Assembly: GCA_964631075.1 (NCBI GenBank)
Contig: CAZVYP010000002.1
Span: 1 to 60,956 of the forward strand
Direction of reading: 5' to 3'
Source of the DNA: an uncultured Methanocellales archaeon
GTDB lineage: Archaea; Halobacteriota; JAWCLZ01
DNA length: 60,956 nt
A program made the translations under genes and the position numbers. Below the pieces are notes generated by a model that saw nothing but the letters and a program-made list of their open reading frames with translations, was not told the origin of the DNA and did not search any database. This document shows, in pieces, positions 2,632-60,956 of the stretch. Each line of letters starts with the position of its first letter. The first letter of the stretch is position 1.

Positions 2632-3414
2632 TCATTTTCTTCTGAAATCAGCAAACTTTTTATCTATCTCTACTCTTAACTCTTCACCTGCCTCTTGAAA
2701 AATGTCCAGTAATTCCTCGTATATATTGTCGCTTGCAACAAAATTCCAGAATTCTTCACCGACGAGAATCTCCCCATCCTCCAGATCATATAATCCCTTC
2801 AATGTCCATCGCTCATAAGGTTCGGGATGATATGGATTATATGGAATCGCCAGTCTTGTAAAAACTTTGGCATTTTTATCCTGACTGAGTCTTAATGCAG
2901 TCCATCTGAGAAGTTTTAGTTTCAATGCCACAAATTCCTTCATATTGGGCTTTGCACTTGTGATATCAAAGTAGTTTTCTGTTTCATTGATCTTTACAAA
3001 TAAATCTACTATCGAATCTGGATCTGCTTTAGGTTGCCCCTTCTTTACTTTTCTTCTAATCCGCTCAACTTCTTCTTTTTTGTTCGCGACAATTTCACCC
3101 TTTCTTAACTTGTAGTGAATCTCATTGATAACTTTCTCTGTACGTGGATCTACTTCACCAAGTAATTTGTATTGTCTCTCTGCATGACTGTTAGAGCCTT
3201 TAGCCAAAACAACCGCAACCTGTTCCCAGATAGACATACCGAAAGTGGTATTCATTGAGTGAATGAAAGAAAACATTGCATATCTATCTTTACCAAGTAG
3301 CCTGTGATGAAAAGGCATATGCACTGTTTCGGGACTATATGTTCTTAATTTTTCCATCACTGTGGTTACGAGAAGTTCAAGTATTTCCTTTTTTGTTTCT
3401 GGTGATATACCCAT
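2632..3414 (-). CDS. putative type II restriction endonuclease (TdeIII-like, tentative)
   Basis: 260 aa. The motif run MPFHHRLLG...FSFIHSMNTTFGMSIWEQVA...FDITSAKPN recalls the TdeIII REase family from memory. The gene is abutted (1-nt gap) by the upstream ORF in the same operon as a DNA methyltransferase. Confidence 0.45.
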   Translation of the reverse strand: MGISPETKKEILELLVTTVMEKLRTYSPETVHMPFHHRLLGKDRYAMFSFIHSMNTTFGMSIWEQVAVVLAKGSNSHAERQYKLLGEVDPRTEKVINEIHYKLRKGEIVANKKEEVERIRRKVKKGQPKADPDSIVDLFVKINETENYFDITSAKPNMKEFVALKLKLLRWTALRLSQDKNAKVFTRLAIPYNPYHPEPYERWTLKGLYDLEDGEILVGEEFWNFVASDNIYEELLDIFQEAGEELRVEIDKKFADFRRK

Positions 3415-3415
3415 A

Positions 3416-3682
3416 TTATACCTTCGATTTCATTAATCCTTCAAGCCCCTTATAGTCTGGGTAATGCGTTTTAAGAGCAATTGTATCTTCTGCCTTAACT
3501 ATTTCATTTCTGACATTTTTCGGAACTTTTTCTAATACACATCTATAATGATAATGTAACCCTTTAGCATACTTGTGTCGAGCAAATTTCTTTGTTTTAG
3601 CTTTCTTTCTGTAATACTTGGTATAAGGGCACTTTCCTTTCGCTACATCTTTCTGGAATAAATTTTGCATTCCTCTAAACAT
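3416..3682 (-). CDS. small basic hypothetical protein (R-M islet)
   Basis: 88-aa Lys/Arg/Tyr-rich ORF. It overlaps the upstream gene by 40 nt and ends 1 nt before the next gene. I recognise no family. Confidence 0.4.
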   Translation of the reverse strand: MFRGMQNLFQKDVAKGKCPYTKYYRKKAKTKKFARHKYAKGLHYHYRCVLEKVPKNVRNEIVKAEDTIALKTHYPDYKGLEGLMKSKV

Positions 3683-4572
3683 CTGACTTCAGATTTAGTT
3701 ATTTTTAAGTCGAAGTTAGAATAGTTGTTTATTACAAACTCACAAAATGGAATCCATCTTTTACATATAGGACATCTATCAGAAGTTCTGGAGTTTTCTG
3801 TATCGATCGTTGCTGAAGGAATAGCAGTTTGTAAAGAAAATGAACCCGATTGAATTTCTTTTTTTCTACCTACTTCAATACCATATATTCGCCTATCATA
3901 TGTTATAATTAAAAAATCTGGTGGGATTATACTATCACGTAAACTCATTACACGCTGAGATAACAATAAAGGAACAATGTAACCCAAATTGCTCCGGAGT
4001 AAGAATATATAAACTAATAGCTCATGCCATAACCCCCCAGCAGTTTTTGGGAGCATAGAATCAAAATATTCGTCTAATTCTTCTGAAGCATCCGATTCTT
4101 CTCTTATAAGTCCTACCGTCCCTTTAAAGTCCTTAAGCTCATTAAAGCGTTCTTCATCTCTAATTTCTGGAATTTTCTCTCCCAACTTTTCTAAGAACCG
4201 TCTCCTTAAATTATTAGAAACAGTAGTTACTTCATAACACATCAATAAGTCAACAAAATACAAAATTGCCCTAACAAAATTCTTTTTATCTTCTTTTGAG
4301 CGCGTAATAGAAGTTCGTATAGAGTAATATCCTCTTCCAAAAAAAATATACTCAAGAAAGTCTGCTAATATCATTTGTCTATCTTTTTCATTGTACAACT
4401 GGCTATCAAAATTTAATTTAGCCAAAACTTCTCTGAGTTTCTCTTCATTTTTTTTAAATATATTATAATCTAGCTTTTCATCAGTTCCAAAATTTTCTTC
4501 ATTCATAAAAATTTCATGAAAAATTTCGAGATGTTTTAAGGTGTTGTTCATCTTTTCATAGACACCCTTCAT
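3643..4572 (-). CDS. putative PD-(D/E)xK nuclease with C-terminal Cys cluster
   Basis: 309 aa. The C-terminal half carries WHE...PPDFLIITYDRRIYGIEVGRKKE (E / PD / ExK arrangement), then CPICKRW...C...C..EC. It starts 2 nt after the methyltransferase stop. Confidence 0.5.
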   Translation of the reverse strand: MKGVYEKMNNTLKHLEIFHEIFMNEENFGTDEKLDYNIFKKNEEKLREVLAKLNFDSQLYNEKDRQMILADFLEYIFFGRGYYSIRTSITRSKEDKKNFVRAILYFVDLLMCYEVTTVSNNLRRRFLEKLGEKIPEIRDEERFNELKDFKGTVGLIREESDASEELDEYFDSMLPKTAGGLWHELLVYIFLLRSNLGYIVPLLLSQRVMSLRDSIIPPDFLIITYDRRIYGIEVGRKKEIQSGSFSLQTAIPSATIDTENSRTSDRCPICKRWIPFCEFVINNYSNFDLKITKSEVRCLEECKIYSRKM

Positions 4573-4574
4573 TG

Positions 4575-5798
4575 TTATCTCACCTTTTTGAAATAGAATA
4601 TTGATTCAAAATACTTATTAGAATCTCTTTCGGTTCTCATCAAAACTGGTCTATGGAAAACATCAATCAGCTCAAATCCACATTGTTTACCTATGCTGGG
4701 ATATAGATTATACTGGTCGTTTGCCACAATAAAAACCGATGCTTCATCAATCAAATTTTTAGAGATATTTCTAAAAACATCCACTATACCTCTAACATAT
4801 TCCTTCTTAGCAACTCCGTTTTGACCCTTTCTGGCAGGTCCTATCTCCAGCTCATCCTGTCTTGGAAACTCAAAAAGTTCATAGGCATATCTATGCTGCT
4901 CGTGATAATCAATAACCCCAACGTAAGGTGGTGAAGTGAATACACCATCAATCTTTAAATCTTCTGGTAATTTTATTTTCCTGGCATCTCCCTGAATAAT
5001 CTTGATAAAAGTATTGGTTCTTAATTTATCAAAATCTTTTAATCTTCTTATCGTATCCAAACTATAACGATCGATAAACTTTAATGCCTCATTAATTGGT
5101 TCGCAATACCTTTTATGCTTTATACACCAGTAGGTTTCTCTAACTGGCTTTTTAGGACGGGCAAGGTCATAATGGGGAATCAGTCTTGCGGAACGAGCAG
5201 ACCTTGAGAGAATTATTTTTAAAATATCTTGATTTTTGTAATCGTTGATTATGCTTCTGTAAAATAAAATTTCCTGTAAAGCTATATCGGAAAACCACTC
5301 TTTAAGATACTCACTATCTGTTTCAAATTTTTCTATTTGCCCGCCAAAAAGAAGTTGATTTTTATTCTGCAAACCGTAACTAAAACTTTTCAGTCTCTTT
5401 AATGCGTCTTTAATTTCCGCCTCAACTTCTTTGATATTATACCTTTTCGTTTTCACTTCTTGAATAGAGACATTAAAAGGCGATAATTCTATTCCAATAG
5501 AGTTCATGCCCAGAACATTTGCTTCAATCAAAGCCGTCCCAGAGCCAGAAAAAGGATCAATAATTGTATCACCTTTCTTAAAATATTTTTTCAAGAAGAC
5601 CTCAACTAACTGAGGAATAAATTTACCGAGATAAGGATGTAACCGATGGACGTGTTTAGTTCGCTCAAACTCTCTGACGCTCAGGAAAGTTAAATCATTA
5701 CCCAAAATTTCAATATTCTTTTGAGTATCTGTTTTTCTCTCGATTAGAGCGGTATCTATCCCGAATTTAACTGCTGCTTTTTTATTTAGCTCAAGCAT
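4575..5798 (-). CDS. DNA methyltransferase (N4-cytosine/N6-adenine class; SPPY type)
   Basis: 407 aa. AdoMet motif I is IIDPFSGSGT, and ~200 residues later comes catalytic motif IV, TSPPY. That order with a long insert suggests an alpha-like architecture. SPPY is most typical of m4C enzymes. Confidence 0.85.
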   Translation of the reverse strand: MLELNKKAAVKFGIDTALIERKTDTQKNIEILGNDLTFLSVREFERTKHVHRLHPYLGKFIPQLVEVFLKKYFKKGDTIIDPFSGSGTALIEANVLGMNSIGIELSPFNVSIQEVKTKRYNIKEVEAEIKDALKRLKSFSYGLQNKNQLLFGGQIEKFETDSEYLKEWFSDIALQEILFYRSIINDYKNQDILKIILSRSARSARLIPHYDLARPKKPVRETYWCIKHKRYCEPINEALKFIDRYSLDTIRRLKDFDKLRTNTFIKIIQGDARKIKLPEDLKIDGVFTSPPYVGVIDYHEQHRYAYELFEFPRQDELEIGPARKGQNGVAKKEYVRGIVDVFRNISKNLIDEASVFIVANDQYNLYPSIGKQCGFELIDVFHRPVLMRTERDSNKYFESIFYFKKVR

Positions 5799-24140: not shown

Positions 24141-24554
24141 CTACTCTGCACCCTTCTCTGTTTTCTCAAGAGATCGGCTCAGGTTGCGAAGTCGTGCGAT
24201 ATTCTTGAGATCCTGCTCTGCCTCTCTTTGCTTTCTCTGCTCAAAGTAATTTATGATTTCTTTTAACGGCACTGAGAGTTTATAGCATTTCAGAGGTCTG
24301 CCTTTACCTTCTTTTTTTATCTCTCTTTCCTCAATCCAGCCTTCTTCCCTGAGCTCACGCATTGCAATGCTGACCTCGGGCTGCCTCAGATCTGCGCCCA
24401 GCTCTATATCTCTGGACACTGTTTCACCTGCATTGGCAAGGTAGATCAGCGTTCTCGCAACGTTTCTCTTCAGCCCGATATTTATAAGCGTACCCGCAAA
24501 TTCCTCATCTTTCTCATCCAGAACAAAAACTTGCTCTTTCCTCATAGAACTCAA
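24141..24554 (-). CDS. winged-helix transcription regulator (ArsR/MarR-like)
   Basis: 137 aa. VARTLIYLANAGETVSRDIELGADLRQPEVSIAMRELREEGWIEEREIKKEGKGRPLKCYKL gives an HTH plus a wing. Confidence 0.65.
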   Translation of the reverse strand: MSSMRKEQVFVLDEKDEEFAGTLINIGLKRNVARTLIYLANAGETVSRDIELGADLRQPEVSIAMRELREEGWIEEREIKKEGKGRPLKCYKLSVPLKEIINYFEQRKQREAEQDLKNIARLRNLSRSLEKTEKGAE

Positions 24555-56666: not shown

Positions 56667-57020
56667 GTGACCTTTCACAATAAGCGTAAGAACCCTCATC
56701 AGACCTATCAGATTCTCACGGATTCGGGATTAAGATCGATCACAAAAAGCTATGCCAGACTATACATCATGGACCTGCTCTATCGAGAGCCACAGGGGCT
56801 AACCTCTACAATGATCTATTGCAATTACAAGGATAAACTCCAGGAAAGTGAAGCCGGCGAGGATTCGGCGAGATCTCGATCTAATATAATAGATCACCTC
56901 AATGAATTAGAGGGAGAGAACATAATTCAAAAAGGGGTTTTCAAGCAATATATACTCACGGAAAAAGGGCGCAAGGTCTTTGAGATAACAATGAAACTCG
57001 CCAGGAAAATAAGGCAATAA
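56667..57020 (+). CDS. hypothetical winged-helix-like protein flanking the cassette array
   Basis: 117 aa (GTG start in the track). LYREPQGLTSTMIY...NIIDHLNELEGENIIQKG looks like an HTH plus wing. It is convergent with the minus-strand array. Confidence 0.4.
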   Translation: MTFHNKRKNPHQTYQILTDSGLRSITKSYARLYIMDLLYREPQGLTSTMIYCNYKDKLQESEAGEDSARSRSNIIDHLNELEGENIIQKGVFKQYILTEKGRKVFEITMKLARKIRQ

Positions 57021-57049: not shown

Positions 57050-57254
57050 TTATCTGGATAGAGTTAAGTAATCGCTCTCGATTTTGGCTCTCCTTCTGTT
57101 CCGGCTATTTTTAATATCGTGCCAGACTCCTTTTAGTGGAAGGTATCGAGTCCGACCTTTTGCCAGACATTTTCTTTCGTTCTTCTTTAACTGAGCTCCT
57201 CGCTTTTATACTGGGTCTTATTCTTCTTTGAATATTCATAATATTTCTTGTCAT
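57050..57254 (-). pseudogene. decayed copy of the TM-less Trp-repeat gene (B3-type)
   Basis: Three frames each carry a piece. They read MTRNIMNIQRRIRPSIKARSSVKEERK, then ENVWQKVGLDTFH, then KGVWHDIKNSRNRRRAKIESDYLTLSR-stop. The last two align with B3 (KTWSDVKVGMGSYTYDAQRVWEDIKADRERRKSKSAQSYLVEDV). Confidence 0.45.
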
Positions 57255-57280
57255 TAACTTCTCACCCCTGCAATTTTTTC

Positions 57281-57604
57281 TCAATATTTGCCCGTCAGAT
57301 ATGCCTCAATGTATCTGCCTTTTTTTCTGCTGTTACCGTCTTTCAGCTCGTACCATACTCTTCTGGCGCTGGAATCGTAGGTATCAACTTTATTTTTTGT
57401 GTATCTCCACCTCCTCTGTGCTCTGACTTCATGTTTTACTGTTCTCCACAGCCAGTTTATCTTCAGGTTGTTTCTTACACTTCTCCAGATCGCGTTGTCG
57501 CCTCTGAGGAGTCCGGCTTTCTGCTTTTTGATGAGCAATTCGATTTCTTTGATTGCTATTTTTCGGCCAATTGACAGACCTGTTATTATGCCGAATAAAA
57601 TCAT
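57281..57604 (-). CDS. cassette A, TM-anchored Trp-repeat protein (A2)
   Basis: The ATG at 57604 overlaps the A1 stop (TAATG); the track starts at GTG 57622. Sequence: MILFGIITGLSIGRKIAIKEIE..., with W boxes AIWRSV, RRWRYT, RVWYEL and the tail EAYLTGKY. Confidence 0.65.
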   Translation of the reverse strand: MILFGIITGLSIGRKIAIKEIELLIKKQKAGLLRGDNAIWRSVRNNLKINWLWRTVKHEVRAQRRWRYTKNKVDTYDSSARRVWYELKDGNSRKKGRYIEAYLTGKY

Positions 57605-57744
57605 TAATAAGATGTCCTGCACTTTCTCACGCCCTTTTTCTTTTTCTCGAAATTCATTGCGACTTTGATTTTAGTTAAAACTCGCCCAAATTCGATTCCT
57701 AAGAGGAAACCGAGCCCAAACGCGAGCAATAATCCAGCATTCAT
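57604..57744 (-). CDS. cassette A, glycine-zipper mini membrane protein (A1, 46 aa)
   Basis: Below the track cutoff. My translation is MNAGLLLAFGLGFLLGIEFGRVLTKIKVAMNFEKKKKGVRKCRTSY. It shares the GxGxxxGxxxGR plus basic-tail design of B1, C1 and D1. Confidence 0.6.
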   Translation of the reverse strand: MNAGLLLAFGLGFLLGIEFGRVLTKIKVAMNFEKKKKGVRKCRTSY

Positions 57745-57790
57745 CAGATATCTCCACTTTTTCTCTAATTATCAGTTATATTTGTCACAG

Positions 57791-57806
57791 AATAAAATTA
57801 GTCGTC
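57791..57806 (-). promoter_or_regulatory. conserved 16-nt cassette box GACGACTAATTTTATT (cassette A)
   Basis: On the + strand it reads aataaaattagtcgtc. It lies ~50-65 nt upstream of the A1 ATG. The same 16-mer is present before B1, C1 and D1. Confidence 0.6.
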
Positions 57807-57980
57807 AATATTTTGAAAATGTTTATCATATTTATTGAATTATTTATTTTATTTTAAAAAATAAGTTCATAAATTTAATGTTATGTTTATAAATTAAAAT
57901 ATTATTCAAAAATATAAACAATTTCTCAGAATATATACACTTTAGTCACTCTTTCGTGACTTAATACCTACCGGATGCGA

Positions 57981-58226
57981 TTAAACATCTTCTACAAGAT
58001 AGCTCTGTGCAGATTTACTCTTTCTCCGCTCACGATCAGCCTTTATATCTTCCCAGACTCTCTGAGCATCATATGTATAGGAACCCATACCAACTTTTAC
58101 ATCGCTCCAGGTCTTGTTTACCTTCAACTCACTTCTCGTTAACTCCCACCGGCGATTGACTTTGAACCCCCTCCTTAATTTTTTCCATACCGTATTTTCT
58201 TTAACGGTTACATTTTTTACTGCCAT
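57981..58226 (-). CDS. cassette B, TM-less Trp-repeat protein (B3)
   Basis: 81 aa with W boxes TVWKKL, RRWELT, KTWSDV, RVWEDI and the tail QSYLVEDV. GGTGA lies 7 nt upstream of the ATG. Confidence 0.6.
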   Translation of the reverse strand: MAVKNVTVKENTVWKKLRRGFKVNRRWELTRSELKVNKTWSDVKVGMGSYTYDAQRVWEDIKADRERRKSKSAQSYLVEDV

Positions 58227-58237
58227 ATTTTTTCACC

Positions 58238-58594
58238 TCAATTTGAGATCAAATACTTGCTTGAAAGCTCTCGCTTTCTGCGCCTCATAGCTATGTTAAC
58301 GTCGTTCCAGGTTTGAAGTGCTTTCATATCGTAGAAAATTAAATCTCTTTCTGTAGACTCCCAGATTCGATTTACTTTCAGACGATTCTTGGAACCCTCC
58401 CATCTTCTGCTGATGTTCAGGTTACTTTTAAGCTCGTTGTATGCGTTTTGAAACTTTATGCACTCCCACACCCTATTTCTTGGCACAATTTCTCTTTTTG
58501 CAGATCTGAACATCATTTCCACTTCTTTAACCGCAATTCTGTGACCAAGACTCAAACCTGTTGCAACCCCCAATGCAAATAGCACCAGAGTCAT
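58238..58594 (-). CDS. cassette B, TM-anchored Trp-repeat protein (B2)
   Basis: The ATG at 58594 overlaps the B1 stop (ATGA); the track start is 58600. Sequence: MTLVLFALGVATGLSLGHRIAVKEVE..., with RVWECI, RRWEGS, RIWEST, QTWNDV and the tail SKYLISN. Confidence 0.68.
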   Translation of the reverse strand: MTLVLFALGVATGLSLGHRIAVKEVEMMFRSAKREIVPRNRVWECIKFQNAYNELKSNLNISRRWEGSKNRLKVNRIWESTERDLIFYDMKALQTWNDVNIAMRRRKRELSSKYLISN

Positions 58595-58737
58595 CTGCAT
58601 GCTTTCACTTCCTGGATTCTTTTTTTCTTCAATCTCGATTCGTAAACCAGAGCAAGCTTTAGCTTGGTGATGAGCCTGCCCAGGAATGCACCCATTACAA
58701 GTCCGGAGCCAATTGCAAGTAAATAGGCTTCTTCCAT
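58591..58737 (-). CDS. cassette B, glycine-zipper mini membrane protein (B1, 48 aa)
   Basis: Below the track cutoff. Sequence: MEEAYLLAIGSGLVMGAFLGRLITKLKLALVYESRLKKKRIQEVKACR. GGTGA lies just upstream of the ATG. Confidence 0.65.
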   Translation of the reverse strand: MEEAYLLAIGSGLVMGAFLGRLITKLKLALVYESRLKKKRIQEVKACR

Positions 58738-58785
58738 TTTTTCACCAATCTTATATCTCTAAATTTGACTCTGTTTGGAAAGGGG

Positions 58786-58801
58786 AATAAAATTAGTCGT
58801 C
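58786..58801 (-). promoter_or_regulatory. conserved 16-nt cassette box (cassette B)
   Basis: Identical 16-mer, ~50-65 nt upstream of the B1 ATG (58737). Confidence 0.6.
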
Positions 58802-58924
58802 ATTAAAGATTGTTATCTGTAAAATGTAACATAATCACTACTTATTTCTAAAAATTCTTTTAAAAAAACGTAATTATGTATTTTTCTAAAAAATTTTATA
58901 AATAAATAAAAAATATGTTTAAAA

Positions 58925-59320
58925 TTACAACTCTTGGTCAGAAGTCTCATCTGTCAAATATTTGCTGGATAAATCGAATTTCCCTGGCTTTCGGGAAACC
59001 TTGATTTCCTCCCAGTTTGCAATTGACTTGAGATTATATCCATCAAGTCCCGTTCTTACACCCTGCCAGACCCTGTTTATTTCCACACTTCTTTTTGCCT
59101 CATTCCAGTCCTTGTTAACCCTGTATTTTTTCTTTAAATCTCTCCAGGTTTTGTTGGACTTGAAACTATTTCTGACACTCAGCCAGACCCTGTTCCCCCT
59201 GACCTTGCCACTTTTAGCAAGGTTAAACATAATTTCTACTTCTTTCATCGCAACCTTGCTTCCAACAGTCACACCGCCAACCGTTCCAGCTGCAAATAGA
59301 ATGAGAACTGTTTCAATCAT
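58925..59320 (-). CDS. cassette C, TM-anchored Trp-repeat protein (C2)
   Basis: The ATG at 59320 overlaps the C1 stop (ATGA); the track starts at GTG 59329. Sequence: MIETVLILFAAGTVGGVTVGSKVAMKEVE.... Using the numbering of the track ORF that starts at 59329, Trp sits at residues 49, 62, 75 and 88 (13-aa period), then 106. The tail is SKYLTDE. Confidence 0.7.
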   Translation of the reverse strand: MIETVLILFAAGTVGGVTVGSKVAMKEVEIMFNLAKSGKVRGNRVWLSVRNSFKSNKTWRDLKKKYRVNKDWNEAKRSVEINRVWQGVRTGLDGYNLKSIANWEEIKVSRKPGKFDLSSKYLTDETSDQEL

Positions 59321-59463
59321 CTTACGCACACTCCCTTATCTGCCCTGCGTTTCTTTAATCGCCACTCGTAGATCAATGCGAGTTTTAACTTTGTAATAAA
59401 TCTGCCGAGGATCATTCCAAATGCAAATCCCGAGCCTATGGCAACAAGATATATGTTTTCCAT
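59317..59463 (-). CDS. cassette C, glycine-zipper mini membrane protein (C1, 48 aa)
   Basis: Internal ATG of track ORF 59317..59532. Sequence: MENIYLVAIGSGFAFGMILGRFITKLKLALIYEWRLKKRRADKGVCVR. GGTGA lies 6 nt upstream. The upstream part of the track ORF is the conserved leader, not coding. Confidence 0.68.
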   Translation of the reverse strand: MENIYLVAIGSGFAFGMILGRFITKLKLALIYEWRLKKRRADKGVCVR

Positions 59464-59530
59464 ATGCGTCACCATCAACGTCTTTTCTACAAATAAACAT
59501 ATATTAAAGCTCAAAATAAAATTAGTCGTC
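59459..59530 (-). repeat. 72-nt perfect repeat copy 1 (promoter + leader + start codon of C1)
   Basis: Base-for-base identical to 60309-60380, checked in 10-mers: catatgcgtc accatcaacg tcttttctac aaataaacat atattaaagc tcaaaataaa attagtcgtc. Confidence 0.95.
59515..59530 (-). promoter_or_regulatory. conserved 16-nt cassette box (cassette C)
   Basis: Identical 16-mer, 52-67 nt upstream of the C1 ATG (59463). A TATA-like TTTAATATAT lies between the box and the ATG. Confidence 0.6.
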
Positions 59531-59734
59531 ATTAAACAAATTATATTTTAAAAATAAACATAATTTTCACTTATTTTTCAAAATTTCTATCTTTTTTAAA
59601 AATATATTAAATTTATTTAGTAATTATGTATTTAAGATGAATTTAAAATAATTTTTCAAAGAATTACTAAAAAAAATAAACTATTCTATAAAAAAATAGT
59701 AATTTTGTTTTATTGCTAGTTATGTTTTATCAAA

Positions 59735-60148
59735 CTACTTTTTGTCAGATGTTTGATTAACCAGGTACTGGCCGGAGACATCGAATCTATCCTTCTTCTG
59801 CTCAAATCTTATCGCCGACCACTTTTCACTTTGTTTCTCCCAGCTCTTATTTGCAGTTGCACGATAATCCTTTACATTACGCTTTACGCTATTCCACTTA
59901 TCGTTTTTGCCAAAGTCGTTCTTAACCTCATTCCAGCCCCTGTTAACCCTGTAGCTCTTCTTCACAGAACTCCATGTTTTATTCTTCCTGAAGCCAGACT
60001 TAATGCTCTCCCACTTTCTATTGCAGCGAGTTCTTCCACTCCTCGCCATGGCGAACATTATTTCCACTTCCTTCATCGCAACCTTGCTTCCAATCGTCAG
60101 GCCACCGGCAGCACCTGCCGCGAATAGAATCAAAATTGTTTGCAACAT
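59735..60148 (-). CDS. cassette D, TM-anchored Trp-repeat protein (D2)
   Basis: 137 aa. Sequence: MLQTILILFAAGAAGGLTIGSKVAMKEVE.... Trp sits at residues 46, 59, 72 and 85 (13-aa period), then 103 and 110. The tail is GQYLVNQ. GGAGGT lies ~9 nt upstream of the ATG. Confidence 0.7.
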   Translation of the reverse strand: MLQTILILFAAGAAGGLTIGSKVAMKEVEIMFAMARSGRTRCNRKWESIKSGFRKNKTWSSVKKSYRVNRGWNEVKNDFGKNDKWNSVKRNVKDYRATANKSWEKQSEKWSAIRFEQKKDRFDVSGQYLVNQTSDKK

Positions 60149-60154
60149 ACCACA

Positions 60155-60313
60155 TCAACCTCCTTCGACCTTTACAGTTTCAGCCCTAATCCGAGCTTTC
60201 TTCTTCAACCGCGATTCATAAACCAGGGCAATCTTCAGCTTAGTAATCAAACGACCCATAAAAGCACCAAACACCAACCCACACAACACAGCCAACACAT
60301 AAACATTCTCCAT
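60155..60313 (-). CDS. cassette D, glycine-zipper mini membrane protein (D1, 52 aa)
   Basis: Internal ATG of track ORF 60155..60364. Sequence: MENVYVLAVLCGLVFGAFMGRLITKLKIALVYESRLKKKARIRAETVKVEGG. Its leader is identical to that of C1. Confidence 0.68.
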   Translation of the reverse strand: MENVYVLAVLCGLVFGAFMGRLITKLKIALVYESRLKKKARIRAETVKVEGG

Positions 60314-60380
60314 ATGCGTCACCATCAACGTCTTTTCTACAAATAAACATATATTAAAGCTCAAAATAAAATTAGTCGTC
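60309..60380 (-). repeat. 72-nt perfect repeat copy 2 (promoter + leader + start codon of D1)
   Basis: Identical to 59459-59530. The flanking coding sequences are clearly diverged. Confidence 0.95.
60365..60380 (-). promoter_or_regulatory. conserved 16-nt cassette box (cassette D)
   Basis: Identical 16-mer, 52-67 nt upstream of the D1 ATG (60313). Confidence 0.6.
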
Positions 60381-60598
60381 TTAAAACTATTTTATTTGTT
60401 ATAATTTACCTTTTTTTTATTTTTTTAACATAATCACTTTAAATTTAATTAAAAATTAATTAAATGCAGTATTATTTTATTTTAAATCATTTTTACATTT
60501 TAAAATACATAAAATCTAAAAATTTTTGAAAGAGATATTGTTCAAAAAAGCATTAGTTTGTTAATTAAAATAAAAAAATGTAAATTGTTACATTATGT

Positions 60599-60956
60599 CT
60601 ATTTATTTTCTGGCTGCTCTTTCGTCAGGTAGTTTGCGGAGACGCCATATTTATCGCGCTTCTGCTCCTCCTTCAGGCTATTCCATTTATCCTGCTGAGA
60701 CTTCCATCTTTCGTCAGTGCGCTTACGATATGTCTTTACGCTTAGCTTGGCAGCATTCCACTTTTCATTGCTTCTGAGATCCTCCTTGATATCCTGCAGG
60801 TTCTGCTTCGTTTTCTCCCAGCCAACATTTGTCCTGTAGCTCTTTTTAACGTCTGCCCAGCGATCGTTCTTCTTAAAGTTTGCTTTTACGTCTTCCCATC
60901 TCTTATTTTTTCGTCTAACTCCTGTCTTTGACAGTTTCCACATCATTTCTACTTCG
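60599..60956 (-). CDS. cassette E, Trp-repeat protein (E2), N-terminus beyond the window end
   Basis: The frame stays open to the window edge. The edge codons read EVEMMWKLSKTG, which aligns with KEVEIMFAMARSG of D2, so the TM part lies outside the window. W boxes: KRWEDV, DRWADV, VGWEKT, EKWNAA, ERWKSQ, DKWNSL. The tail is ANYLTKE. Confidence 0.7.
   Translation of the reverse strand, partial: EVEMMWKLSKTGVRRKNKRWEDVKANFKKNDRWADVKKSYRTNVGWEKTKQNLQDIKEDLRSNEKWNAAKLSVKTYRKRTDERWKSQQDKWNSLKEEQKRDKYGVSANYLTKEQPENK

Follow-up and report, generated by a model that had tools for sequence, protein, structure and literature searches.

A tandem array of genes for glycine-zipper mini-proteins and tryptophan-repeat membrane proteins in an uncultured Methanocellales-related archaeon

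What is encoded by the run of small, unfamiliar genes that closes an otherwise ordinary archaeal contig, and what might its products do at the membrane? The genes in question occupy positions 57050–60956 of a 60,956-nucleotide stretch of DNA from an uncultured Methanocellales archaeon (contig CAZVYP010000002.1 of assembly GCA_964631075.1), which was analysed at its full length and is referred to here as the window. On its minus strand this segment carries a repeated pair of genes, one for a glycine-zipper mini-protein and one, called gene 2, for a larger protein with a single transmembrane (TM) helix and a tail of tryptophan-containing repeats. There is hardly any doubt about the nature of the locus: at least five transcription units, duplicated long ago, stand in tandem on the chromosome of a Methanocellales-related archaeon, and purifying selection acts on all of their genes. 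The function of the encoded proteins can be addressed more tentatively, and several explanations have to be weighed.

According to the list of open reading frames (ORFs) and their translations, the cassettes follow one another as E (partial), D, C, B and A, and each consists of a gene for a mini-protein of 46–52 aa and a coupled gene 2 coding for 107–137 aa (Table 1). In B and C the two genes meet in an ATGA overlap, with an extra ATG 6 nt further upstream in B, while the TAATG junction of cassette A is formed by an ATG that lies 6 codons inside the GTG-started gene 2. The junction of cassette D is TGA-tgtggt-ATG, which leaves a 6-nt gap, and here a GGAGGT lies within the end of the mini gene. 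GGTGA or GGAGGT is found ahead of each start codon, including a GGTGA 7 nt upstream of the ATG of a third gene in cassette B. This third gene encodes 81 aa in B and has orthologues in other genomes; in cassette A only frameshifted pieces of it are left, in two frames, at 57186–57133 (..ENVWQKVGLDTFH, then a stop) and 57133–57050 (KGVWHDIKNSRNRRRAKIESDYLTLSR, then a stop), with the family C-terminal motif VWHDIKNSRNRRRAKIESDYL in a frame unlike that of the 57-aa ORF. Cassettes C, D and E have no third gene. The original prediction, made from the sequence alone, had described a minus-strand array of at least five cassettes with gene 2 coupled to the mini gene through these same junctions, and with a third gene intact in B and decayed in A; all of the listed ORFs are present, and the description holds in each of these points.

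At the upstream end, the frame of cassette E gene 2 stays open to the last base of the window (...EVEMMWKLSK), and it matches its orthologue on the 103-kb metagenome contig L001 from residue 27. A window-wide search recovered no further copies elsewhere within the window. Relatives have an added, longer cassette type (E', 157–162 aa) upstream of E, and therefore the array may hold six cassettes if the part past the window end is counted.

Comparison with the relatives shows that these frames are genes. The array is collinear with L001 across 2973 nt at 70% DNA identity, and orthologue pairs are 62–79% identical in protein. The ratio of nonsynonymous to synonymous substitution rates (dN/dS) is 0.10–0.15 for every mini gene, gene 2 and B third gene with an estimable dS, and in the gene 2 of D and E the proportion of synonymous differences (pS) is saturated at 0.78–0.83, while that of nonsynonymous differences (pN) is just 0.11–0.17. 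Furthermore, the third codon position of the minus-strand frames carries excess substitutions throughout, and the differences in D gene 2 are distributed as 25, 27 and 71 over sense codon positions 1, 2 and 3. By coordinate arithmetic, this third-position excess falls on position 1 of the plus-strand ORF 59753–60127, which is thus not the coding frame. The C and D copies in the window do contain antisense stop-free stretches of 130–134 codons, but these long frames do not stay open in several orthologues and are, for example, reduced to 61–69 codons in L004. They are shadow ORFs, a by-product of a sense strand that is 60–70% purine, and the assignment of the minus strand as the coding strand is thereby upheld.

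The cassettes are related to each other at a considerable depth. Gene-2 paralogues find one another in BLASTP searches with E-values from 1e-44 to 2e-3 at 26–47% identity, and the mini paralogues with E-values from 8e-19 to 5e-5 at 37–77% identity, the A mini matching those of B, C and D at 3e-8 to 5e-5. Upon clustering, each window paralogue groups with the orthologues of other genomes and not with its array neighbours, giving the types E', E, D, C, B, third gene and A, the last with orthologues P0029 (L010) and P0030 (L009). Since the paralogue types cluster across genomes, the duplications predate the divergence of these organisms, and gene order has been kept ever since. The view that this is an old, maintained family and not an assembly duplication is consequently borne out by the cross-genome orthologue clusters, by the same order over 2.9 kb and by the dN/dS values, although the accompanying statement that the paralogues share only motif-level identity was too modest, as their similarity lies far above chance.

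A further regularity concerns the size of the gene-2 products, which declines along the array in every genome seen: 157–162 aa in E', 142–146 in E, 137 in D, 131 in C, 115–120 in B and 107–113 in A, with the TM-less third-gene paralogue at 80–81 aa. The loci that define this gradient are 57281–60956 of the window, L001 4163–7134, L004 242–2799 and L005 9143–10593. The array is not immutable. In L001 a remnant of E' (FWDRTKDIHKSHIADAKRRVEDAQ) is located at about 3540–3620, between a radical-SAM gene and the first intact cassette, which indicates that cassettes have been lost in some lineages, and in L004 a C-type mini occurs without gene 2.

Each cassette also appears to carry its own promoter. 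A promoter-like motif, [TA]GACGACTAATTTTATT, lies approximately 55–70 nt upstream of each mini ATG, with 4 matches in the window, all of them upstream of mini genes, versus 0.26 expected by chance, and it is kept upstream of the cassettes in relatives L001–L007. Its ACTAAT followed by TTTATT would fit an archaeal transcription factor B recognition element (BRE) plus TATA box, as judged by the established promoter consensus. The spacers before the mini genes are 187–236 nt long and have a GC content of 11–21%, against about 45% for the whole window. In addition, 72 nt are identical between the C leader (59530–59459) and the D leader (60380–60309) on the minus strand, from the motif through ATGGA, whereas the flanking coding DNA has diverged (the C and D minis are 59% identical) and the matching L001 leaders differ from each other. 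This suggests either a recent gene conversion tract or strong constraint on the 5' region.

The family has an extremely narrow distribution and is confined to a few uncultured Methanocellales-type archaea. A search with the D gene-2 protein matched nine proteins among 5.8 billion, and the loci of these nine repeat the layout of mini plus gene 2 three or four times. An exhaustive search of 1.84 billion representatives with a hidden Markov model (HMM) returned 8 proteins, and a mini-protein profile search returned 17. Among 185,579 GTDB species genomes the family occurs in 2, GCA_038850275.1 and GCA_037443105.1, both of which are metagenome-assembled genomes (MAGs) labelled Methanocellales archaeon, and beyond those loci one further short metagenome contig carries it. 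Across 2.9 million viral contigs (IMG/VR), 0 of 75 candidate stretches were confirmed. A literature search found nothing on this family.

What kind of proteins are these? The mini-protein begins with M-E-N and continues into a hydrophobic stretch of about 17 residues, in which G12, G16 and G20 are invariant, and after which come the invariant R21, T24, K25, K27, A29, E33 and K37 and a variable basic end. The gene-2 protein starts with M-L-Q-T and likewise goes on with a hydrophobic helix that has the glycines G12, G16 and G20 in all members; A24 and E27 are also invariant, V28 and E29 nearly so. They belong to a juxtamembrane box, [SR]-[KR]-[VI]-A-[MIV]-[KS]-E-[VI]-E, which reads K-E-V-E in types A–D and S-E-V-E in the E type, and is followed by the tail. 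Conservation falls, in both proteins, on the glycines and on the polar residues of the juxtamembrane helices, not on bulk hydrophobics. The most hydrophobic stretch of 17 residues (Kyte-Doolittle 1.8–2.3) is at residues 3–20 in all mini and gene-2 proteins. Net charge is +6 to +18 and the isoelectric point (pI) about 10; there is no charge or a negative one before the TM helix, and Lys and Arg after it. Given this distribution and the positive-inside rule, both proteins are predicted to adopt an N-out/C-in topology. The two are not duplicates of one another as far as can be detected, since the idea that the mini-protein is a copy of the gene-2 N-terminus found no support at an hhalign probability of 3%.

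The gene-2 tail is built from a 13-residue unit with the consensus N-[KR]-x-W-[ED]-x-[VI]-K-x-x-[FLY]-[KR]-x. Over 51 distinct repeats, the Asn is kept in 46, the Trp at position 4 in all 51 and a Lys or Arg at position 8 in 49. The Trp residues are spaced strictly 13, 13, 13 and then 18 residues apart, plus 7 in D and E, and an S-x-x-Y-L motif near the C-terminus is almost invariant. The mean hydrophobic moment of the 13-mer is 0.53, compared to 0.34 +/- 0.17 for shuffles, and the tails carry a net charge of +9 to +18. Structure predictions of the tails contain helices only. From the juxtamembrane box on, the third gene can be aligned with gene 2; it is a TM-less gene-2 paralogue, and it shows that the repeat domain is an autonomous module. 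Extracellular, N-glycosylated tails were considered and rejected: only one repeat in five or so contains N-x-[ST], and the distribution of charges speaks against such a location.

Taken together, these features point, with a probability of roughly 35%, to heteromeric single-pass membrane complexes whose cytoplasmic basic tails would form a coat or scaffold on the inner face of the membrane. Both proteins would be inserted N-out/C-in, and the G-x3-G-x3-G helices of the mini and gene-2 proteins could pack side by side into a parallel TM heteromer. A heteromeric complex and a cytoplasmic location of the basic tails had been suggested in the original prediction too, and the sequence is consistent with both. 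The basic amphipathic helix of the mini-protein (R-x2-T-K-x-K-x-A-x3-E) may then dock on the acidic box of its partner (A-x-[KS]-E-V-E). The tails, with three or four 13-residue units and then a long helix with Trp residues 18 and 7 apart, would turn Trp/aliphatic patches flanked by Lys and Arg towards one another as well as towards the inner surface of the membrane. A membrane-bound coat or scaffold might in this way arise from several paralogues whose tails are graded in length, and the TM-less third protein could join it via the shared repeat domain; the likely role would be a structural or protective one for the membrane in this clade. The core-chromosome setting, with TBP, HisF and THUMP methyltransferase genes nearby, and the absence of the family from viral contigs and defence libraries speak for this reading. 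A more elaborate version is a long shot: a scaffold specific to one uncultured Methanocellales lineage, in which five to seven ancient paralogous heterodimers and the TM-less paralogue co-assemble along the inner face of the membrane as an ordered lattice or ruler, with graded tails that are possibly stapled through Trp-Lys links by a neighbouring radical-SAM enzyme.

Several observations weigh against the coat or scaffold. The AlphaFold2 (AF2) models disagree with each other and give no confident structure: the D gene-2 protein is modelled with short helices at 44–54, 57–68 and 70–80 and a long helix at 83–133, at a predicted local distance difference test score (pLDDT) of 57, whereas the B third-gene protein is modelled as a single continuous helix from 12 to 79 (pLDDT 73). 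The hydrophobic face of the 13-mer is narrow, as it includes 3 of 13 residues at a mean hydrophobicity of -0.45, and it fits helix-helix packing or a charged single helix no less well than membrane binding. Moreover, a 13-residue period turns successive patches by about 220 degrees, which makes one continuous amphipathic stripe impossible on an alpha-helix; the tail would thus have to be segmented at the Asn residues or packed against several partners, and the 18- and 7-residue spacings do bring the Trp residues of the last helix onto one face. Finally, cassettes have decayed in some lineages (E' in L001, the C-type in L004 and the A third gene in the window), which implies partial redundancy.

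The alternative that survives best, while still being unlikely, is that the anchored basic Trp-repeat tails hold nucleic acid, ribosomes or another polyanion at the membrane, by analogy with the membrane-anchored ribosome-binding proteins YqjD, ElaB and YgaM of E. coli, or with the Trp-cluster DNA-binding domains of Myb and IRF. The charge and pI of the tails, their regular Trp and many Arg residues and their predicted helicity are what such a tether might look like, and an Orc1/Cdc6 gene lies 1.3 kb from the array in L001 and L002. However, the Cdc6 neighbour is missing from the window and from the MAG loci, the tails also hold 10–19 acidic residues, and no nucleic-acid-binding family matched. 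The Trp residues of Myb domains are 18–19 residues apart. The array spacing of 13, 13, 13, 18 and 7 departs from that, and Myb_DNA-bind_5 was found in two members only, at a noise-level E of 1.7–7.

It is quite improbable that the minis oligomerise via their glycine zippers into pores or lesions, in the manner of holins, type I toxins or leaderless and two-peptide bacteriocins, in which case the basic protein would serve as their regulator, antidote or co-peptide. Channel formers that homo-oligomerise and two-peptide bacteriocins typically have G-x3-G-x3-G helices, and the minis share this pattern, are cationic, have 46–52 aa and are encoded by tandem paralogues. Against this, the array is fixed at a single syntenic position in the chromosome, its paralogues keep their order and are strongly constrained by purifying selection, the neighbourhood lacks transporter, immunity and mobile-element genes, and the proteins have no export leader. 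PADLOC and PHROGs gave no significant match, and the viral contigs lack the family.

Another idea, which has very little going for it overall, takes its cue from a neighbouring gene. In L001, L003 and L005 a radical-SAM gene (279–326 aa, with a weak SPASM match) is located on the same strand immediately upstream of the array, and the encoded protein is 85% identical between L001 and L005. Its closest solved relatives are the peptide maturases SkfB (E = 6e-9) and PqqE (4e-8). This SPASM-like enzyme might cross-link the W-x3-K units of the repeats into stapled helices, with a chemistry resembling the Lys-Trp or cyclophane links of streptide, darobactin and triceptides, and the constancy of W4 and K/R8 would suit such a substrate. 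Nevertheless, the enzyme stays under every curated NCBIfam cut-off (the best is the PTO1314 family, 120 bits versus a cut-off of 306), the array proteins are membrane-anchored, lack a leader/core layout and have no conserved Cys, and TrmO and DsrE/TusA genes further upstream are conserved too, which means that the adjacency may reflect the general synteny of close relatives. The gene is also absent from the window; in the source genome it probably lies just past the window end.

The weakest proposal, that the cassettes are chance frames in AT-rich filler or that the plus-strand ORFs 58962–59396 and 59753–60127 are the real genes, has practically no chance, being refuted as far as comparative sequence data can do so by a substitution pattern that fits the minus-strand frames only, by the broken antisense frames and by homologue E-values down to 1e-61. 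The remaining probability may belong to other functions, for example that of accessory subunits of a larger membrane complex.

The surroundings of the array are those of an ordinary archaeal chromosome, as the window also encodes GatE, argininosuccinate lyase and aldehyde:ferredoxin oxidoreductase in addition to the three genes named above. At the 3' end of the array, a winged-helix-like gene is found in the window, L004, L009 and L010, and a paralogue lies upstream of the array in L005. The family of this gene comprises 12 clade-restricted proteins. MAG GCA_037443105.1 has three or more paralogues, and the array there is flanked by two of them. The family also occurs away from arrays, in L012–L015 and L017, where it travels with an unrelated gene of 80–91 aa (MDIERLELGNGKFEV...); the gene was therefore rejected as the dedicated regulator of the array, and is taken as a neighbour and at most as a candidate regulator.

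Two further observations were made in the window. A small regulator-like protein encoded at 24150–24545 on the minus strand is 88–90% identical to those of L004 (4012–4431) and L009 (1676–2098), which places the source organism close to these MAGs. Its gene is located just downstream of the array in the Methanocellales MAGs and 33 kb away from it in the window, and thus the region has been rearranged. Separately, a low-GC island at 2632–5798 on the minus strand (33–36% GC) carries genes for a restriction endonuclease of the TdeIII type and for a DNA methylase, and is probably an acquired restriction-modification system.

Table 1. Coordinates of the array genes, putative promoters, spacers and neighbouring genes, with the orthologues compared (positions are those of the window unless a related locus is named).
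Feature	Position	Strand	Description	Orthologue comparison
Cassette E gene 2	60599..60956	-	partial; TM helix and mini gene beyond 60956; reads ..EVEMMWKLSKTGVRRKNKRW..	L001 4163-4594 (residues 27 onward): 78% identical, pN 0.110, pS 0.776 (saturated)
Cassette D mini-protein	60155..60313	-	52 aa; glycine-zipper TM helix and basic amphipathic helix	L001 4894-5055: 73% identical, dN/dS 0.146
Cassette D gene 2	59735..60148	-	137 aa; TM helix, KEVE box, 13-residue Trp repeats, long C-terminal helix	P0003: 67% identical
Cassette C mini-protein	59317..59463	-	48 aa from MENIY	L001 5703-5855: 77% identical, dN/dS 0.125
Cassette C gene 2	58925..59320	-	131 aa from ATG of the ATGA overlap	L001 5852-6247: dN/dS 0.146; P0008
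Cassette B mini-protein	58591..58737	-	48 aa	L002 1811-1948: 79% identical, dN/dS 0.154
Cassette B gene 2	58238..58600	-	120 aa	L001 6536-6883 (dN/dS 0.147), L004 2188-2550, L006 2138-2500
Cassette B third gene	57981..58226	-	81 aa; intact, TM-less gene-2 paralogue beginning at the juxtamembrane box	L001, L002, L004, L006; dN/dS 0.099
Cassette A mini-protein	57604..57744	-	46 aa; most divergent mini copy	
Cassette A gene 2	57281..57622	-	113 aa from GTG start, 107 aa from ATG	
Cassette A third gene	57050..57284	-	decayed, frameshifted remnant	
Promoter-like motif of cassette D	60365..60381	-	aGACGACTAATTTTATT; putative BRE and TATA box	
Promoter-like motif of cassette C	59515..59531	-	inside the 72-nt stretch identical to the D leader	
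Promoter-like motif of cassette B	58786..58802	-		
Promoter-like motif of cassette A	57791..57807	-		
Spacers between cassettes	60365-60598, 59533-59734, 58738-58924, 57745-57980			
Winged-helix-like gene	56667-57020	+	117 aa; weak HTH_45 match; converges on the array	
Radical-SAM gene, L001	2435-3415			
Radical-SAM gene, L003	4511-5491			
Radical-SAM gene, L005	7129-7968			

If the proposed membrane-bound assembly is real, the array would define a new class of archaeal membrane-associated structural proteins, marked by an unusual Trp repeat of 13 residues and by a dedicated partner subunit that carries a glycine zipper. The array would then also be a clean example of how a multi-paralogue system of small proteins is built and maintained, with a promoter for each pair, conserved order and graded lengths. 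Genes of about 50 aa are easily overlooked in the annotation of MAGs, yet those of the array rank among the best-conserved parts of the locus. The confinement of the family to a handful of uncultured genomes limits the immediate impact.

How, then, does the array compare with known systems? The original prediction could place neither protein in a named family, and the wider searches agree with it; nor did any of the observations that it had named as refuting it turn up, as far as the tools used could show. Pfam, NCBIfam, PADLOC and PHROGs returned nothing significant for the ten window proteins: PADLOC gave a single noise match (E = 0.014, over 28 residues of a type II restriction enzyme model), and the best PHROGs match (E 0.014) was to a family of unknown function. 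When 17 gene-2 and third-gene members and 11 minis were scanned one by one against Pfam at E <= 10, only scattered noise came up, namely TMP repeat in 4/17, DUF6291 in 3/17 and UPF0154 in 3/11 minis. Among PDB sequences the best match had an E of 0.49, and a Foldseek search of the PDB with AF2 models had no match at E <= 0.001. The array has no detectable relative or matching architecture; it is new in that sense only, and no new mechanism is claimed.

There are nonetheless likenesses at the level of architecture. Class IIb and leaderless bacteriocins are also cationic proteins of 40–55 aa that use GxxxG helix pairing and Lys/Trp-rich helices and are encoded by tandem paralogous genes; the array, in contrast, has no leader, transporter or immunity genes, pairs its mini-protein with an anchored 107–160-aa protein, resides at a fixed core-genome locus under purifying selection and has no HMM match to them. 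The TMP repeat of phage tape-measure proteins (PF05017, W-x-x-h) likewise combines a regular Trp with a hydrophobic residue three positions on in long helices, and its weak matches begin on the repeat Trp in the four members concerned. These missed the family cut-off of 15 bits (7.8–9.5 bits in the members listed, best E 0.022), and the TMP repeat has a period of 11 and is Gly/Ala/Ser-rich, whereas the array repeat has a period of 13, is Lys/Arg/Asn-rich and lies outside any phage context. With the families Gly-zipper_Omp, _OmpA, _YMGG and Rick_17kDa_Anti, none of which matched at E <= 10, the array shares the bare G-x3-G-x3-G pattern alone.

Similar in architecture are the membrane-anchored basic stress proteins YqjD, ElaB and YgaM of E. 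coli (DUF883) and YtxH of Bacillus (PF12732), which, like the array proteins, are small and bitopic, combine a TM helix rich in glycine with an extended, charged and helical part in the cytoplasm, and occur as several paralogues per genome. The PF12732 and DUF883 HMMs were absent from the Pfam scans at E <= 10. The anchor of DUF883 proteins is C-terminal, while that of the array proteins is N-terminal, and the array differs from all of these in its dedicated, coupled mini-subunit and in the 13-residue Trp period.

The pair also resembles TatA and TatB in architecture (MttA_Hcf106, PF02416). There was no match to PF02416 at E <= 1 for the 10 window proteins or at E <= 10 for the 17 + 11 members, and no TatC was found among the genes flanking the arrays in L001–L005 and L009 or among the window genes scanned in 48–57 kb. 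The layout may be comparable in several respects: in Tat proteins only a few residues precede a single TM helix with its N-terminus outside, and a Gly hinge with basic residues leads to an amphipathic helix on the cytoplasmic side and to a charged tail. In the array proteins, with their topology predicted from sequence, a hydrophobic stretch at 3–20 leads through G-R or G-S-K into a polar-conserved helix with a hydrophobic moment of only 0.34–0.37. In both systems small and larger proteins are encoded side by side, those of Tat being paralogues that act as hetero-oligomers. The array departs from the Tat plan in its Trp-periodic tail, which is unknown in Tat proteins, and in possessing at least five diverged pairs instead of one.

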